Shown here piece after piece: positions 5,584 to 20,501 of a stretch of 64,000 nt of DNA (positions are counted from its first letter, which is position 1; the number at the start of each line of letters is the position of its first letter). Source of the stretch: a virus. Taxonomy: Duplodnaviria; Caudoviricetes. Made by a program: the position numbers and the translations under genes. The DNA is taken from positions 1 to 64,000 of IMG/VR virus record IMGVR_UViG_3300033475_000012. One strand, 5' to 3'. The notes under the pieces are model-generated. The model was not told the origin of the DNA, searched no databases, and worked only from the letters and a program-made list of their open reading frames with translations.

Positions 5584-5608
5584 AAATTGATATTTTTGAT
5601 AACGGTTA

Positions 5609-6031
5609 TTACTTGTTAATACACAATTCGTCTAATCTATTTTTATAATGAATCATCAGTTTACCAGGAAGGATATCGTATTTTGCTTTAGCTTCGATTA
5701 ATTGTTCAACCGTCTGGGCGTTATCGAAGTCTATTTCAGCGCGTTCCCATTCTTTGTTATACGATTGTGGTGCTGCCGGGCCAATTGGTGGCGTTTCTCG
5801 AATAGAGCCAGATACTACCTCATTAGTTACTTGCCCTCTCATAGAATCCGCTTCTATTTTTAATTTAGCTGCGACGGCTTCTAATTGTTTATTGGCTTCC
5901 AGCATTCCGTTTTCTACCGGATTAGATAGATTTTCATGCATGGATATATCGGCTTCTATTTGGAGCGTGGTATCCAGAAAATTGGAATAAATAGAAAACT
6001 TTCGCTGAACTAATATACTTTTGTATTTCAT
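5609..6031 (-). CDS. hypothetical protein
   Basis: Likely ATG start at 6031 (MKYKSIL...). Confidence 0.65.
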   Translation of the reverse strand: MKYKSILVQRKFSIYSNFLDTTLQIEADISMHENLSNPVENGMLEANKQLEAVAAKLKIEADSMRGQVTNEVVSGSIRETPPIGPAAPQSYNKEWERAEIDFDNAQTVEQLIEAKAKYDILPGKLMIHYKNRLDELCINK

Positions 6032-6068
6032 AATTAAAAAGTTGGCCCGCATAGAAAATCACCTGGTG

Positions 6069-6132
6069 TGGAGAAGAGAGGGATCGACCCCCTACACGCC
6101 GTCGCGCGTTCTGCCAATTAAACTACTTCCCC
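6069..6132 (-). ncRNA. 64-nt tRNA-like RNA lacking an anticodon arm
   Basis: GGGGAAG-TA-GTTT AATTGGCA GAAC-G-CGCG ACGG CGTG-T-AGGGG GTCGATC CCTCT-CTTCTCC-A: acceptor, D and T arms pair; a 4-bp tetraloop hairpin replaces the anticodon and variable arms. Confidence 0.7.
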
Positions 6133-6135
6133 ATA

Positions 6136-6155
6136 CCCGTCTTTCCGGGCTGTCC
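6136..6155 (-). repeat. GRCA-stem-GAAAGA hairpin, copy 1
   Basis: GGACA GCCCG GAAAGA CGGG, ending 3 nt before the tRNA-like RNA. Confidence 0.7.
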
Positions 6156-6274
6156 CGATTTGCAGATGTGCCGGACAATTGGTTTTGCTGGTCATCCTTC
6201 AGGAAGTTCGCTCCTATACTGCAATCTGGCACTTCTCTTCCTTAGCATTGCAGCGGAGAAATAAGTTTTAAAAA

Positions 6275-6298
6275 GTGCCGGTCTGTTCCCGGCTGCCA
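6275..6298 (-). repeat. GRCA-stem-GAAAGA hairpin, copy 2
   Basis: GGCA GCCGG GAACAGA CCGGC. Confidence 0.65.
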
Positions 6299-6439
6299 CC
6301 ATTAGTTTACGTCCTTATGGGCAAATCTATGGAGCGGCCCGCTGAAGCTTAGACGTTTTGCCGTTGAACCTATCTAACGCTTTAGTCAACGATTGGTAGG
6401 AGGAAGAAGACCGAAGTCTTGCCCATTAGACCAATATCG

Positions 6440-6549
6440 TGCCTCCCGGCCGGATTCGAACCGGCACCCATATCCTACTCAACGTTTTTTCAAATATGGG
6501 CCTTCGTATAGAGCATATACGACGCGTCTACCAATTCCGCCACGTAGGC
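6440..6549 (-). tRNA. non-canonical tRNA-Leu-like RNA (110 nt); probably not a decoding tRNA
   Basis: Leu-type 5' end GCCTACG-TG-GCGGAATTGGTAGACGC and T arm GCCGG-TTCGAAT-CCGGC; anticodon arm is a 7-bp stem with 5-nt loop; enlarged variable arm; 1x2 internal loop in acceptor stem; no encoded CCA. Confidence 0.65.
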
Positions 6550-6552
6550 AAA

Positions 6553-6572
6553 TGCCGTCTTTCCGGCTGTCA
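6553..6572 (-). repeat. GRCA-stem-GAAAGA hairpin, copy 3
   Basis: TGACA GCCG GAAAGA CGGC, stem ending 4 nt before the Leu-like RNA. Confidence 0.7.
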
Positions 6573-7048
6573 GGCTTCTTTTTTCGTGTTTTCAAGGTAT
6601 TGGGACGGACTAGGAGTCATCCCTCATGCCTTACTCACGGCATTCACTCACTGGAAAAAGTCAAACCGCTGTAAGTTTTGCACCCGTGGACGGCCGCGCC
6701 CCTACATTCCCGTTGGACGATAATTTCAGCAATAAGTTTTGCGGGGCGCTCTTCCAAGGACTACTCGCATTCCCGCGCCCGAGGCACGACTGCATTGCAC
6801 CTATAGAGCCTCTGAATGGGTCTTATAACTTTCCCTTCGTTTTTCGGTGATGCTTTAAGTAGAGCGCAGCCTTTAATTGCCCGCAATATATTTAAAGAAC
6901 TAACTTTTCAAAAATGGGAGCCGGTTATTCCTGTGTTGCTCCGACTCCCTTACCCTATGCTGAACGACCCACGAAAGTAATTTTAAAAGCCCCGTTTTGC
7001 CAAGAATGGTTATCCGGGGCCTATTGCTTGCTTGTCTGTCAGAAACAA

Positions 7049-7171
7049 TTATTTCATGCCACCATAATGGCTACGTACCCAATCGCATGAATTATGAGAA
7101 CTTGAACAACTCGAAATCAGAGCGCTAACCAATAAGGATATAATACCTACGTAAAAGAATGCTTTTTTCAT
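7049..7171 (-). CDS. tiny lipoprotein (40 aa, SPase II lipobox)
   Basis: MKKAFFYVGIISLLVSALISS|CSSSHNSCDWVRSHYGGMK, translated by hand. Confidence 0.65.
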   Translation of the reverse strand: MKKAFFYVGIISLLVSALISSCSSSHNSCDWVRSHYGGMK

Positions 7172-7185
7172 GATTTATATGGGTT

Positions 7186-7386
7186 TTAATTTTCTTGTGT
7201 TTCCTGCAATTCAGGATAATCTATTTCTGTTTCCGGAAATTCTTTATAGAATACATACATATTATCCCAGTATCGGCGATGGCGGCCTTTCCACTTCTTT
7301 TCTTCTCGTTTGCCTTTAACGACTAAGTATATAAGGGCCACCGCAATGCAACCACCAGCAATTAATAGGTAATATATAAAAGACAT
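7186..7386 (-). CDS. single-TM membrane protein
   Basis: N-terminal hydrophobic helix followed by basic residues. Confidence 0.65.
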   Translation of the reverse strand: MSFIYYLLIAGGCIAVALIYLVVKGKREEKKWKGRHRRYWDNMYVFYKEFPETEIDYPELQETQEN

Positions 7387-7431
7387 GGCTTTAGGATTTT
7401 TAGCATTAGGATAGAGAACGGGAAAAACGGG

Positions 7432-11590: not shown

Positions 11591-13912
11591 TTACTCTAAA
11601 TACCAATTTGTAGATCCGGCTACTATAATCCTACTTATCCCAGCCGTTATAGTTAACGTAGTAACTTGAGATGTATCATATATATGATCACCAGATGCAG
11701 CATTTAGTGTGATGCTCGCAGAACCTGCATTCTTAATATAATATTTCTTCCCTTGAGAACCACTTAAAGAAGGAAGAGTCCATATTGTTGCCGAAGATCC
11801 GGTAAATACGTAATCAGAAATACCGGAAAGAGTTAGTGTTGTAGCAGAAGTTTCTGATAAATTAGTCTCAGAATTAGTGCTGAAAGAATTTATGACAACC
11901 CAAGTAGAGGCAATATCTTGAATTACATACCAAGTATCTGAATTTAAAGTGGTCAATTTAGTTGACAAATCAGGGAAATAGACATTTGATAAGAAAGACC
12001 AAGTATTAGTTCCCCCTAAATTATAAAAACTTATCTGCCTCCCACTTCCCGTAGCTGACGGAAGGGTTATTGTTAGATTAGATGAAGGAGCGCCAAGGTA
12101 ATATATAGGTACCCCTTCGGTAACTGTTAAATTTGAGCTAGTACTTGGAGAATTATATCCAAAATATAAACTTGTGAATAAATTAAAAATGCTCGTACCC
12201 CCGGACAAACTCAAAGTTTGACCATTCATATTTATGGAGGTTGATTTATTTAATGTTCCACCTAAAGATATTGTATCTGTTCCTCCAATAGGTCCGGTTA
12301 TTGTCAATCCATTTAATGCCTTAAGCGTATCTGTTGGCAAAGAAGGTGCAATCTTGGCAGCTATGGCGGACCATGTAAATCTACGCGTTGAACTGTCTGG
12401 CATCCATCCCATAAGACCAATTGAATTTGTCGTGTCTTGAGACATGCCAGTATATTTCCACGTTCCACTGCCGCCTAAAGCTATTGTTGTAGCAAAACCA
12501 GTTCCAGTTATGGTATTGGAGCTACTAAGAATGGACCCCGTTGTTATAACTTGCTGCAATGTTTGAGACCCCCCTCCCGATATAGCACCCTCGATCACAT
12601 TTCCCGAGGCATCCACATTAAGCGCATATGTTGGTGTGCCCGTATTTGTGCCTGAGCCATAACCAGTAATCGCCATCTTTCCACCCGAAGGTACTATGAT
12701 CAGTTTTCCGGCGCTGTTGGTCTGCCATGTGGTATAATGAGTGGCATCATAATGGGCAGCCAACTGCGGCTGAGTGGTGGACGTAATTTGGACCAACCCA
12801 GTAGAATTATCAATAGTACCGCCGACGAGAAATTTTTGCAATTCGGTGAACCGTGCAGCTTCTGCTTGTGAGCTGCCATTGGTGCGTGTCAGAATTTTTA
12901 AGCCCGCGCTATAATCCCCAGAGGTGGAATTGGCCTTGTACCCTTTCAACATTGCGCCGCCCGTATATTGAGGGGTCGTATTGAACTCGACGCCGAAATT
13001 GATCGTCGCTCCATTTCCAGCCGCCATGCCACTATTATCATTCAGCATCAGTGTTCCCGCATAGGGTTGTCCAGGCTCTGTGGCCAGAATCTCCATCGGT
13101 GAATATTGGGCATTGTTATCTGTAGAAGTAGACGGCGAGCCTACAAATAGATGCTTGACATTTGTCGTTTGGGTATTATCCAGCGATAACACCTGTAACA
13201 GAGCCGAAGGTGTGGCGGAGTTATTCGTCCAGAAATCCATCTCTCCGGGCATGTTAGTGGTAGACGGTGTGCCGGTCACCCGAGCGGAGATAAGGGCCGC
13301 TACCTGCGGTACGGTACCATTATAGCCGCTGAATTGAAAGCCACCCAGTGAGTCGCCAGAAGATGGAGTGCCAGGCGATGCAAATGAGCCACGGGTCTTG
13401 TAGAAATTGATATAGCTGCAGCCCGTTCCCGCGACCGATCGTTGAATCATAATTCCCGGCTTCAGCGCGCCGGACTCATTATGAAAAAGGTGAAAGTCCA
13501 TTTTCGGGGCAGTGCCGACATTCAACCCCAGAGCTATATTAGTCGGATCAAGATAATAGTTTCCAGACTGAGCAAGCAGTCCAGAACCATCCGTGTACAG
13601 AAGCTGATTGGCTGTAGATCCCGATACGCTGCCCCCTATGGCCATCCCTGCACCACCACCACCTCCCGAAGTGCCGTAGATGTTAACTGGATGAACGCTT
13701 GTTGTGATATAGTACAGGCCGCCAGTGATTGTCGATCCCAGACTATCCTGCACAGCACAGAGCATTGGGTAACTTGAGGACGAAGGAAGGTCCGAAACAT
13801 GCGTGTAGAGCGGGATAAATAACTTTCCTCCTTTCCCGCCCCAGCCGTAAAGCATCTGTGATCGCGCCGTAAACGCTATCGAACAACAGAGTATGAAAAG
13901 CAGCTTCTTCAT
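11591..13912 (-). CDS. tail-fibre-like protein with Sec signal peptide
   Basis: MKKLLFILCCSIAFTARS|Q; Gly/Ser/Thr-rich; 'LNVDASGNVI' and 'QTLQQVITTG' segments typical of Bacteroidota phage fibres. Confidence 0.7.
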   Translation of the reverse strand: MKKLLFILCCSIAFTARSQMLYGWGGKGGKLFIPLYTHVSDLPSSSSYPMLCAVQDSLGSTITGGLYYITTSVHPVNIYGTSGGGGGAGMAIGGSVSGSTANQLLYTDGSGLLAQSGNYYLDPTNIALGLNVGTAPKMDFHLFHNESGALKPGIMIQRSVAGTGCSYINFYKTRGSFASPGTPSSGDSLGGFQFSGYNGTVPQVAALISARVTGTPSTTNMPGEMDFWTNNSATPSALLQVLSLDNTQTTNVKHLFVGSPSTSTDNNAQYSPMEILATEPGQPYAGTLMLNDNSGMAAGNGATINFGVEFNTTPQYTGGAMLKGYKANSTSGDYSAGLKILTRTNGSSQAEAARFTELQKFLVGGTIDNSTGLVQITSTTQPQLAAHYDATHYTTWQTNSAGKLIIVPSGGKMAITGYGSGTNTGTPTYALNVDASGNVIEGAISGGGSQTLQQVITTGSILSSSNTITGTGFATTIALGGSGTWKYTGMSQDTTNSIGLMGWMPDSSTRRFTWSAIAAKIAPSLPTDTLKALNGLTITGPIGGTDTISLGGTLNKSTSINMNGQTLSLSGGTSIFNLFTSLYFGYNSPSTSSNLTVTEGVPIYYLGAPSSNLTITLPSATGSGRQISFYNLGGTNTWSFLSNVYFPDLSTKLTTLNSDTWYVIQDIASTWVVINSFSTNSETNLSETSATTLTLSGISDYVFTGSSATIWTLPSLSGSQGKKYYIKNAGSASITLNAASGDHIYDTSQVTTLTITAGISRIIVAGSTNWYLE

Positions 13913-18370: not shown

Positions 18371-19630
18371 TTATATAAAGGAGATGCCCGCTTTAGAAAG
18401 ACGTTCTAATGACTTTTTGGCCTTATCTACACTGTCCATTTTGATAGAAATATCGAATCCCTCTATTGAATAAGCAACCTCTTTGGCTTTTTTTATGGCT
18501 TCGTCCATGGTTCTCCCTAATCCAACTACGGCCCCCATTTCTTTCATTTTTTGACCGTTGGGTGTGTAATATGAAATACCATCGTCGTCAATGACCAAGT
18601 TCTTTATCTTTACAAATTTTTTATTCTCTTCTGGAATTTTTATGGGAGATGGGTCTGTTTCGGCTAAATCAGATTTTATTATAAACTGACAGGCATATTC
18701 GTAATCAAATCTTATTTCAGGTATTTTACCACCAGCAATCGTCCAAACTATTTCTGGGAAATTAGTCCACCAACTTGTTAGGATGGATGTGGGTGGCTGT
18801 CCAAAACGACAAGTGTAATCGAGCATATACCCCACCTTATCTTTGCCTATGATAGTTTCATTAGAGAATATACCGTTATACTCCATATCATTAAAGATCG
18901 GGGCAAGCCTATCGGTAATATCCTTTACTTGTCTTGGCAACGAATGATAAGGCACCATCCTCGTTATATACATACAATCTTTAACTTCTAGACCGGCACT
19001 ACAATAATAAGTATACGCTCCATTGGCTGTGGGAATATCAATACCTATTTCGGATAATCCGTCGATATGGTGTTCTACTGTATATTTTGGTTGATTTTGG
19101 AATATCTTCAATCCTGATTTAATTCTTTCAACTTCACCTTTTGAAAAAATCCAATCCTTATGCTCCCATGTTTCTCCATCCCCTCGAAGTCCCCCCTTAA
19201 CCCAAGAATGCGGCGCATTTTTCAATATTTCAGATAAACCATCAACACCATCAGCTTCGTAATAAGGGCCAACCGGCAGACCCAACTCTTTTAATATTCT
19301 CTTGCCTAATCTTCTGTCATTTTCTAATTCTGATGCAAAAAAACTACCGAATACTCTCTTACCTAAATTTTTCCAATGTTTCTGAAGGTAAGGTTCATGT
19401 GCGTCCGTAGTTACAACAATACTACATTGATCTATAACAGAAGCCCATTCCTTTACCCGTTCGATATTAGGCACATTACGAGCCATATCCATAGCCTCGT
19501 GAGAAGGATTGCCATTCATCACATAAGGACCGGTATAGAAAACACGTTCGAAAGACTCCGCAAGACGAATAGCGATTTCCATCTTGTCATAGTAGTCATA
19601 TACTAAACAGCATTCATTGGACAAATCCAT
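18371..19630 (-). CDS. PurD/GARS-like ATP-grasp ligase
   Basis: Start MDLSNEC at 19630; 'ASELENDRRLGKRILKELGLPV', 'WVKG', 'TVEHHI', 'LDYTCRFGQPP' match GARS-type ATP-grasp motifs. Confidence 0.75.
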   Translation of the reverse strand: MDLSNECCLVYDYYDKMEIAIRLAESFERVFYTGPYVMNGNPSHEAMDMARNVPNIERVKEWASVIDQCSIVVTTDAHEPYLQKHWKNLGKRVFGSFFASELENDRRLGKRILKELGLPVGPYYEADGVDGLSEILKNAPHSWVKGGLRGDGETWEHKDWIFSKGEVERIKSGLKIFQNQPKYTVEHHIDGLSEIGIDIPTANGAYTYYCSAGLEVKDCMYITRMVPYHSLPRQVKDITDRLAPIFNDMEYNGIFSNETIIGKDKVGYMLDYTCRFGQPPTSILTSWWTNFPEIVWTIAGGKIPEIRFDYEYACQFIIKSDLAETDPSPIKIPEENKKFVKIKNLVIDDDGISYYTPNGQKMKEMGAVVGLGRTMDEAIKKAKEVAYSIEGFDISIKMDSVDKAKKSLERLSKAGISFI

Positions 19631-19634
19631 AACA

Positions 19635-20501
19635 CTAAGTTGTTTTATATTTCCAATAAAATCCTTTAAATACAATTCCGCTAACACAGGCATCGGATAT
19701 CCCATGCCTATAGGCTCCTATATTGTCTTTTTCAGCCCGATTGAGAGAAAGATATTCGGATATAATTTCTCCTTCTAATGATATTTTTAATACATTAGGG
19801 AATCCTCTGGATTTCTTTATTTTATTTATGGATTCGTCCGTATGTTTTTTACCAAAAAAACTATTTTTTTCATTTCTCCTATCTTCGGACATTTTTGCTT
19901 TCGTTTCATCCGATGCTTTACGACCGAAACTATGACAATATGGTCCCCTTTTTCCATACGCCCAATGTTTTTCTCCTTTTTGAGATTCACTCATTTTTTT
20001 GATTGACTCTTCGGAATGTTTTTTACGGTAAAATGGGTTGTCTTTTCCCATTTTTTTACCCTTTTTTATGGCACTAATTTTATCTCCCGTTTCTTTTGGC
20101 CTTTTTCTACCTCTATGAAATTCAGCCAATCTAGCATATTTTTCCTTAGAAATAAAACACTTCCCTTTTCTGCTTTCGCTCATCTTCTTTTTGGTTGATT
20201 CAGAATGAATCATACCTAATACTCCATCGCCTCCGTTAGTTAAGTTACACAAAATGCCACCATTAGATTTCCTTCCATACAAACTAATAAACTCCTTTTC
20301 TTTTTCAATAGCATCTTCCCACGATATATTATCCACTATTATTTGAACCTCATATGAAGTATTTTTAACTATATTATGCCAATGCCTATTTCTGTCCAGC
20401 ATAGAATTAGCTCTTGTGTACTTTCCATTATCATCACTACCTATACCAATATAAAATGGCTCGTTCTTATCAAGTCTTATATGTCTATATACGTATGCCA
20501 T
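19635..20501 (-). CDS. free-standing GIY-YIG-like homing endonuclease with NUMOD3/NUMOD1 repeats
   Basis: 'AYVYRHIR...FYIGIG', repeated 'KHSEESIKKMSE' NUMOD3 motifs. Confidence 0.85.
   Translation of the reverse strand: MAYVYRHIRLDKNEPFYIGIGSDDNGKYTRANSMLDRNRHWHNIVKNTSYEVQIIVDNISWEDAIEKEKEFISLYGRKSNGGILCNLTNGGDGVLGMIHSESTKKKMSESRKGKCFISKEKYARLAEFHRGRKRPKETGDKISAIKKGKKMGKDNPFYRKKHSEESIKKMSESQKGEKHWAYGKRGPYCHSFGRKASDETKAKMSEDRRNEKNSFFGKKHTDESINKIKKSRGFPNVLKISLEGEIISEYLSLNRAEKDNIGAYRHGISDACVSGIVFKGFYWKYKTT

Follow-up and report, generated by a model that had tools for sequence, protein, structure and literature searches.

Why should a phage carry a tRNA-shaped sequence that has no anticodon arm, and what might it do there? 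The DNA analysed here, which we call the window, is the first 64 kb (64,000 nucleotides) of an 80,291-bp IMG/VR contig that is 69% complete. The record is that of a phage, as it encodes a terminase, a holin, a lysin, large tail-like proteins, and two NUMOD/GIY-YIG homing endonucleases. Its distant terminase relatives were found mostly in Bacteroidota MAGs. Tiny identical contigs are present in soil metagenomes of three studies, and four soil DNA runs gave tiny letter-identical contigs over parts of 5600-6301 and 7300-7400, in which no variants, joints, or ends were seen. An earlier note on this DNA had described a mini-tRNA of 64 nt (hereafter the 64-mer) and had offered several functions for it.

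The sequence of the 64-mer on the minus strand is GGGGAAG-UA-GUUU-AAUUGGCA-GAAC-GCGC-GACG-GCGU-GU-AGGGG-GUCGAUC-CCUCU-CUUCUCC-A (Table 1). All seven acceptor pairs are formed, comprising six Watson-Crick pairs and G3.U70, and U8 and A9 come next. The D stem has four pairs, one of which is G.U, and its loop contains G18 and G19. The central stem also has four pairs (G.U, C-G, G-C, and C-G) and is closed by a GACG tetraloop. The T stem has five pairs, including one G.U, and the sequence of its loop places a G at position 54. The Rfam tRNA model RF00005 matched exactly the 64 nt with a score of 35.2 bits (gathering score, 29 bits; E = 3.5e-7 for the 80-kb genome), and assigned 6 nt to the 15 positions of the anticodon arm, which corresponds to a deletion of nine positions. 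No other match to the tRNA model above the cut-off was found in the rest of the 80-kb record, and ARAGORN reported neither a tRNA nor a tmRNA in the whole 64-kb window. The anatomy given in the earlier note, namely a 7-bp acceptor, a 4-bp D arm with the GG sequence, a 5-bp T arm with G54, and a tetraloop hairpin at the site of the anticodon arm, was therefore confirmed by the model score and by direct reading, and its claim that the element cannot decode was borne out by the missing anticodon arm and the absence of an ARAGORN tRNA call.

Table 1. Features in and around the 64-mer (window coordinates)
Feature	Position	Strand	Basis or remark
Non-coding block of ~1 kb, from the lysis cassette to ORF147	6053-7045	minus	Without credible ORF; absent from kin phages
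ORF147, the downstream co-oriented ORF	5609-6052 (140 aa from Met-8, 5609-6031)	minus	Start codon 37 nt after the 64-mer
Anticodon-less tRNA-like unit, 64 nt	6069-6132	minus	Rfam RF00005 match and fold; RNA position i = window coordinate 6133-i
Acceptor 5' strand GGGGAAG	6126-6132	minus	Pairs with 6070-6076 (CUUCUCC), pair 3:70 being G.U; direct reading
D arm GUUU-AAUUGGCA-GAAC, including G18 and G19	6108-6123	minus	Sequence and Rfam model
Central GC-rich hairpin GCGC-GACG-GCGU, replacing the anticodon arm	6096-6107	minus	Sequence and fold
T arm AGGGG-GUCGAUC-CCUCU, G at position 54	6077-6093	minus	Sequence and Rfam model
Discriminator A73, followed by CAC rather than CCA	6069	minus	Sequence; trailer statistics
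Hairpin GACA-GCCCG-GAAAGA-CGGGU	6135-6154	minus	Ends 2 nt ahead of the 5' end of the 64-mer
Variant hairpin GGCA-GCCGG-GAACAGA-CCGGC, then a T run; terminator-like	6277-6297	minus	Sequence
tRNA-like unit #2	6440-6549	minus	Leu-type D arm, perfect T arm, long non-anticodon body
Hairpin GACA-GCCG-GAAAGA-CGGC	6554-6571	minus	4 nt ahead of tRNA-like unit #2

The predicted folding energy of the 64-mer is -26.1 kcal/mol (z = -2.5), and three of 200 shuffled sequences were as stable, while the plus strand of the same positions gave z = +0.1. The two ends of the RNA close the acceptor stem, and the fold is kept in the native context up to the start codon of ORF147. The structure favoured by ViennaRNA has a central hairpin of 6 bp, for which C25 is borrowed, and extends the T stem to 6 bp with a loop of 5 nt, the latter because G54 is able to pair with C60. 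Taken by itself, the central hairpin exceeds chance only weakly, as we estimate p ~0.05-0.1 for a 4-bp hairpin in a 14-nt linker. One way to read it is as the 26.44 pair and the top three pairs of the anticodon stem with a tetraloop cap. The strength of the case for a tRNA shape lies in the 16 intact tRNA pairs of the acceptor, D, and T stems (20 of 20 proposed pairs with the central stem included) and in the conservation of tertiary positions (U8, A14, A15:U48, G18, G19, A21, G53:C61, U55, C56, and A58). The exception in the tertiary core is position 54, where G replaces U and the T-loop departs from the canonical one. A nearly identical D arm is present in a normal tRNA of another phage locus (L110). 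The usual 5-bp anticodon stem with its 7-nt loop is replaced by a stem of 4 bp and a loop of 4 nt. These results led us to conclude that the 64-mer has a genuine tRNA shape, lacking only the anticodon arm, and that it is unable to decode.

The acceptor stem (G1-C72, G2-C71, G3.U70, G4-C69, and the discriminator A73) pointed to alanine. The acceptor-stem determinants listed for bacterial alanine tRNAs are A73, G2-C71, G3.U70, and G4-C69, with no anticodon determinant, and G20 in the D loop is listed as a minor core determinant (PMC9976931 Table 1). The 64-mer possesses all four of the acceptor-stem determinants; G20 is replaced by C. When the signature GGGG...CUCCA was searched for in five Bacteroidota/FCB genomes, all seven matches were tRNA-Ala genes, and a control with the reversed pattern gave none. 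The D and T arms of the 64-mer are unlike those of the seven host-type tRNA-Ala genes, indicating that it is not a fresh copy of a host gene. Judged by these sequence features, the 64-mer is derived from a tRNA-Ala.

The 64-mer is the last unit of the non-coding block, which is GC-rich in patches. Three hairpins of the form GACA, 4-5-bp stem, and GAAAGA loop (one of them a variant) are found in the block, and its modules follow a common order in which such a hairpin is followed after 2-4 nt by a tRNA-like unit. The terminator-like variant is located 135 nt upstream of the 64-mer. An exact 12-mer of the hairpin core occurs twice in the 64 kb (one copy at 6137-6148), compared with 0.21 copies expected by chance, and both copies end 2-4 nt ahead of the 5' end of a tRNA-like unit. 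The 19-mer of the hairpin next to the 64-mer is also found inside the tRNA cluster of an unrelated phage. The acceptor of unit #2 contains an A.G mismatch and a bulged G, making this unit the worst-formed member of a family of at least 11 loci, whose homologues have perfect covarying acceptors. In the loci of this family, which include L013, L018, L033, L090, L093, and L107, the D and T arms are fixed and the bodies are 50-100 nt long. The hairpins and the tRNA-like units are the only parts of the block with relatives elsewhere, and a blastn search with the 1.2-kb block found no match among GenBank phages.

Other features of the block and its flanks were also observed. A 16-nt motif, TTTKAAAANTTANTTYC, has three minus-strand copies inside the non-coding block (6973-6988, 6897-6912, and 6258-6273 in plus-strand coordinates), each of which comes after a GC-rich hairpin and a T run. 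By their sequence, these sites resemble a series of three intrinsic terminators or junctions of terminator and promoter. A search of the block for sigma-70-type promoters gave nothing useful, Bacteroidota and phage promoters being outside the coverage of the tool. Downstream of the lysin, the minus strand encodes a 66-aa membrane protein with a single pass (7186-7386) and, at about 7050-7170, a small ORF that resembles a lipoprotein and has a lipobox of the Bacteroidota type; these two ORFs (7050-7386) look like a spanin-like pair that may complete the lysis cassette. On the other side of the block, the likely start codon of ORF147 was placed at 6031 because its 42%-identical relative, encoded on a 1,088-bp contig, begins at Met-8 of ORF147. 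ORF147 and this relative, the only one found, share an identical 18-residue N-terminal block, LVQRKFSIYSNFLDTTLQ. ORF147 also gave a weak, sub-threshold match to the "restriction endonuclease fold toxin 5" family, and no nuclease domain above the cut-off was detected in the ORFs adjoining the 64-mer.

In order to place the block among related phages, the terminase was used as a profile, and seven IMG/VR kin with 35-46% identity were obtained. Six of the seven have no match to the tRNA model, and the distant G007 is the only one with a tRNA cluster. The whole block is missing from four kin genomes including G005, a phage with synteny at this end (43% identity in the lysin), with small ORFs right after the lysis cassette, and with no GACA hairpin. 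Because the kin phages do not possess it, the block is a lineage-specific acquisition. Three Logan contigs of 75-82 kb carry a terminase that is ~82% identical, and an 89-kb twin contig also exists. Neither ORF147, the lysin, nor the terminase, used as single-protein anchors in IMG/VR, found close kin, and an ORF147 profile found no match in metagenome contigs. The phage of L027, one unit of which has the acceptor of the 64-mer (see below), was considered as kin and rejected by its terminase. A two-anchor pattern for the 64-mer had no match in IMG/VR or in the JGI metagenome contigs. A covariance model of the 64-mer (R1; self-score of 99.3 bits, by construction) found, in 1.5 Mb of phage DNA, only ordinary tRNAs and an artefact inside the tRNA-Ser of L110. 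By these searches, the 64-mer appears to be a one-off by sequence, but not by architecture.

The recurrence of the architecture became apparent from the hairpin. Its exact pattern was matched by more than 117 IMG/VR contigs, whose base composition runs from AT-rich to GC-rich (loci including L003-L119). In every case, the GACA hairpin is co-oriented with the feature that follows it, which is a normal tRNA, a start codon, a hairpin, or an aberrant tRNA-shaped unit. Comparison with second copies of the GACA hairpin showed that the stems covary and that the GAAAGA loop and the GACA flank are fixed. Of 110 distinct sites, 19 have a closed-acceptor unit with a T arm starting no more than 12 nt after the hairpin, although ARAGORN calls a tRNA at only six of the sites. 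A strict detector of closed acceptors with T arms returned 36 units in 1.1 Mb, compared with 0.3 per shuffled replicate, and 13 of the 36 were oversized (90-159 nt). We defined the module class as GACA, a 4-5-bp stem, and a GAAAGA loop, followed after 0-12 nt by a unit that has a T arm and a closed acceptor but lacks a usable anticodon arm. The 64-mer, with its spacer of 2 nt, is a member of this class.

Short members similar in size to the 64-mer were also found. A scan of IMG/VR for the hairpin followed 30-50 nt later by a T-loop retrieved 18 contigs, where we estimate ~0.06 by chance, and at least seven distinct short units (49-68 nt) with seven of seven acceptor pairs and five of five T-stem pairs follow the hairpin. 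One of them, the 59-mer of L249, has the same design as the 64-mer: it has G3.U70, A73, and a GGCC-UACG-GGCC tetraloop hairpin directly ahead of the T arm. In the homologous pair of L058 and L235, the D stem shows a compensatory change and the middle part differs by an indel. The 3' trailers set the aberrant units apart from genuine tRNAs of the same phages, since CCA is encoded by 13 of 14 genuine tRNAs and by 5 of 40 aberrant units (Fisher p = 1e-7). Where an aberrant unit follows the hairpin (19 units), a CA trailer other than CCA is present in 11 cases (CAC in the 64-mer) and T at position -1 in 12, the 64-mer included. In the non-decoding units (L003-L119 and L235-L249), a discriminator followed by CAA, CAC, or CAG is far commoner than one followed by CCA. 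A co-oriented ORF starts within 45 nt downstream of nine of the 19 units. Among the seven short units, this is the case only for the 64-mer, and punctuation before a gene is therefore not a universal role.

The combination of G3.U70 and A73 was also observed in the hairpin-preceded non-decoding units of L027, L094/L068 (133-134 nt), and L249 (59 nt). The unit of L027 (4431-4535, minus strand) has an acceptor and discriminator identical to those of the 64-mer (GGGGAAG...CUUCUCCA) on a Y-shaped body of 105 nt that lacks a D arm; the phage that carries this unit is unrelated and has terminal repeats. Rfam has no family for the hairpin or for the odd bodies, and permissive thresholds over the module-bearing loci gave matches to the tRNA model only. 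A literature search with the hairpin sequence returned unrelated papers only. Judged by architecture, the hairpin-preceded tRNA top halves form a recurrent and apparently undescribed class in phages.

A cultured phage also carries such modules. In BS-TP2 (PQ571275.1), whose host is Bacteroides salyersiae, an unannotated member of the unit #2 family is located at 19550-19657. The gp31 stop codon is followed by 2 nt, the hairpin, 4 nt, the 108-nt unit (40.1 bits), 12 nt, and the gp32 ATG. The two flanking genes encode a DUF2303 protein (gp31) and a NinG/Rap protein (gp32), and the syntenic site between them in different phages holds unit bodies of 104, 108, 133, and 154 nt. A second aberrant unit of BS-TP2, which is tRNA-like, intercistronic, and 82 nt long (13732-13813), has a 16-nt "anticodon" loop and ends 27 nt ahead of the gp21 ATG. 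A lone T-arm-like terminator hairpin (13430-13446) and an ordinary tRNA-Gly attP fragment beside the integrase (5873-5923) were also noted in this phage. The presence of a sister module in BS-TP2 opens the class to bench tests in a cultured phage.

What, then, might the 64-mer do? RNase P and RNase Z recognize the acceptor/T-arm domain of their substrates and can dispense with the anticodon arm; RNase Z is blocked where CCA is encoded. Of a tRNA, the 64-mer would keep only the parts recognized by the end-processing enzymes (acceptor, T arm, and D/T elbow). This non-decoding tRNA-shaped fold stands at a boundary of RNA units, with a stable hairpin 2 nt upstream and the start codon of ORF147 37 nt downstream. 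Our tentative preference, held at a little short of even confidence, is that the 64-mer may be the last module of a horizontally acquired cassette and may serve there as an RNase P/RNase Z processing module. The 64-mer would be co-transcribed with the RNA upstream and with ORF147 downstream. Cleavage by RNase P ahead of G6132 would leave an upstream RNA ending in the GACA hairpin and 2 nt, which would be a poor substrate for 3' exonucleases. Cleavage by RNase Z after A6069, for which the absence of an encoded CCA leaves the way open, would free an ORF147 message whose leader is 37 nt long. In this scheme, the 64-mer would be left over as a by-product, which might receive CCA, and its alanylation is conceivable given the alanine identity set, whereas codon reading would be impossible. 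We infer each of these enzymatic steps from established properties of RNase P and RNase Z. Among the three functions offered in the earlier note, only the RNase P/RNase Z processing signal gained support, of a comparative kind, from the layout of hairpin, short spacer, and tRNA-shaped unit, the absence of an encoded CCA, the U at position -1, and the intercistronic placement. Against the processing reading stand the damaged acceptor of unit #2, which indicates that decay occurs in this cassette, the G at position 54, the terminator-like hairpin upstream, the lack of a nearby ORF start at the other six short units, the absence of a homologue of the 64-mer from the 1.5 Mb of phage DNA and from the pattern scans, and the absence of the block from four kin genomes.

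Known systems provide partial parallels. In the mascRNA at the 3' end of MALAT1 and the MEN-beta tRNA-like RNA of vertebrates, as in the 64-mer, the acceptor, D, and T regions are intact, the anticodon arm is reduced and non-decoding, and a stable RNA structure is located directly upstream. In MALAT1, the RNase P cut creates a protected upstream 3' end, and RNase Z and CCA addition release the small RNA. Unlike the 64-mer, mascRNA is eukaryotic and nuclear, and the two have no common sequence ancestry; the upstream protector is a triple helix in the mascRNA system and a short GAAAGA-loop hairpin at the 64-mer, and cleavage is proven for MALAT1 whereas we infer it for the 64-mer. Plant mitochondrial t-elements and animal mitochondrial tRNA punctuation are tRNA-shaped folds marking RNase P/RNase Z sites, and like the phage unit they lie between or beside coding units. 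They are organellar, however, and have neither the upstream hairpin motif nor the alanine set, while the phage units are found in acquired cassettes. The T4 stable RNAs species 1 and 2 (rnaC and rnaD), which are co-transcribed and processed with tRNAs, resemble the 64-mer in being phage-encoded, non-decoding small RNAs, but they are longer, are not closed cloverleaf top halves, and have no known conserved hairpin upstream. tmRNA, which is charged by AlaRS, shares with the 64-mer the GGGG...CUCCA acceptor, G3.U70, A73, the T arm, and the lack of an anticodon; it has no D stem and has pseudoknots and a tag reading frame, whereas the 64-mer has a D stem and neither of these. The identification of the 64-mer as a tmRNA was rejected, as 64 nt leaves no room for the tag frame or the pseudoknots, ARAGORN and Rfam found no tmRNA, and the 69%-complete record has no SmpB. 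A bacterial Y RNA of the YrlA type was also rejected: such RNAs end in a Ro-binding stem, while the ends of the 64-mer form an acceptor, and the record (69% complete) contains no TROVE domain.

The 64-mer may instead be an inert relic. It would then be what is left of a phage tRNA-Ala gene after loss of the anticodon arm, or its exchange for a short GC hairpin, by deletion, by a repair scar, or by a nuclease-cassette "plug", and it would be carried in an acquired cassette and be too young for the other stems to have been lost. We consider this reading somewhat unlikely but a substantial possibility. The 64-mer being a singleton, the absence of the block from the kin phages, the poor state of the neighbouring unit #2, and the atypical G54 are all consistent with it, and so are the G+C content of the plug (79%, against 42% for the genome) and the two GIY-YIG/NUMOD homing endonucleases. 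These two large genes, 13 kb and 53 kb from the 64-mer, are the only GIY-YIG genes of the record. A scar of a nuclease cassette of the Ssn type, a family of GIY-YIG nucleases (Chenal et al. 2025, PMC11893778), was rejected, as no small single-domain GIY-YIG gene is adjacent, no intact tRNA copy is nearby, and the 64-mer has retained both strands of its acceptor. The plug was also rejected as a mobile palindrome; it is unique in the window, and all 53 IMG/VR copies of its 16-mer are in GC-rich coding DNA and none is tRNA-like. Relic status is further opposed by the intactness of all 20 base pairs and of nearly all tertiary-core positions, and by the independent recurrence of the architecture after the same hairpin in at least seven unrelated contigs, where compensatory changes and a CA trailer that is not random are also seen.

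Alternatively, a CCA-tailed 64-mer might act by itself in trans as a tRNA mimic, its alanine acceptor engaging AlaRS, EF-Tu, or SmpB, or the RNA capturing, as a decoy or sponge, a host factor or a defence system that senses the elbow or the acceptor. The complete set of acceptor-stem determinants and the specificity of the signature for tRNA-Ala are in line with this idea, which we regard as unlikely, and three other hairpin-preceded units share G3.U70 and A73. In addition, PMC9976931, where it cites Francklyn and Schimmel (1989), describes AlaRS as independent of the anticodon and as charging minihelices. The C at position 20, however, is not the minor determinant, G3.U70 is present in 3-4 of ~20 aberrant families, which is not clearly above expectation, and CCA is not encoded. 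The 80-kb record (69% complete) contains no SmpB, CCA-adding enzyme, peptidyl-tRNA hydrolase, or Ro60/TROVE, and nothing found points to a particular partner or defence system. A broader form of the idea, to which we assign a distinctly low likelihood, is that phage tRNA top halves are a widespread class in which the members with the alanine set, including the 64-mer, are charged and act in trans without decoding. Such charged top halves might titrate AlaRS or EF-Tu, provide a minimal tmRNA-like entry with SmpB, or blunt a defence that senses or cuts tRNAs. It is very improbable that the 64-mer is a domain of a larger structured non-coding RNA across much of the 1-kb block, which the patchy GC-richness and the lack of a credible ORF would allow, as the flanking stretches fold no better than shuffled sequences (z = -1.5 and -0.6) and have neither relatives nor an Rfam family, and the 64-mer is self-closing and keeps its fold in context.

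If the processing reading is true, tailed phages of Bacteroidota and other hosts would borrow the tRNA-trimming enzymes of the host to cut and stabilize their transcripts, and stripped-down tRNA shapes would do this work paired with a conserved hairpin. To our knowledge, the tRNA-shape processing logic has so far been documented in organelles and in vertebrate long non-coding RNAs. The reading would also explain why tRNA finders miss many tRNA-like matches in phages, and it would provide a new class of intercistronic signals for phage annotation and natural "tRNA scaffold" parts for RNA expression in Bacteroides. The alanine identity set of the 64-mer adds the further possibility of a charged non-decoding RNA.
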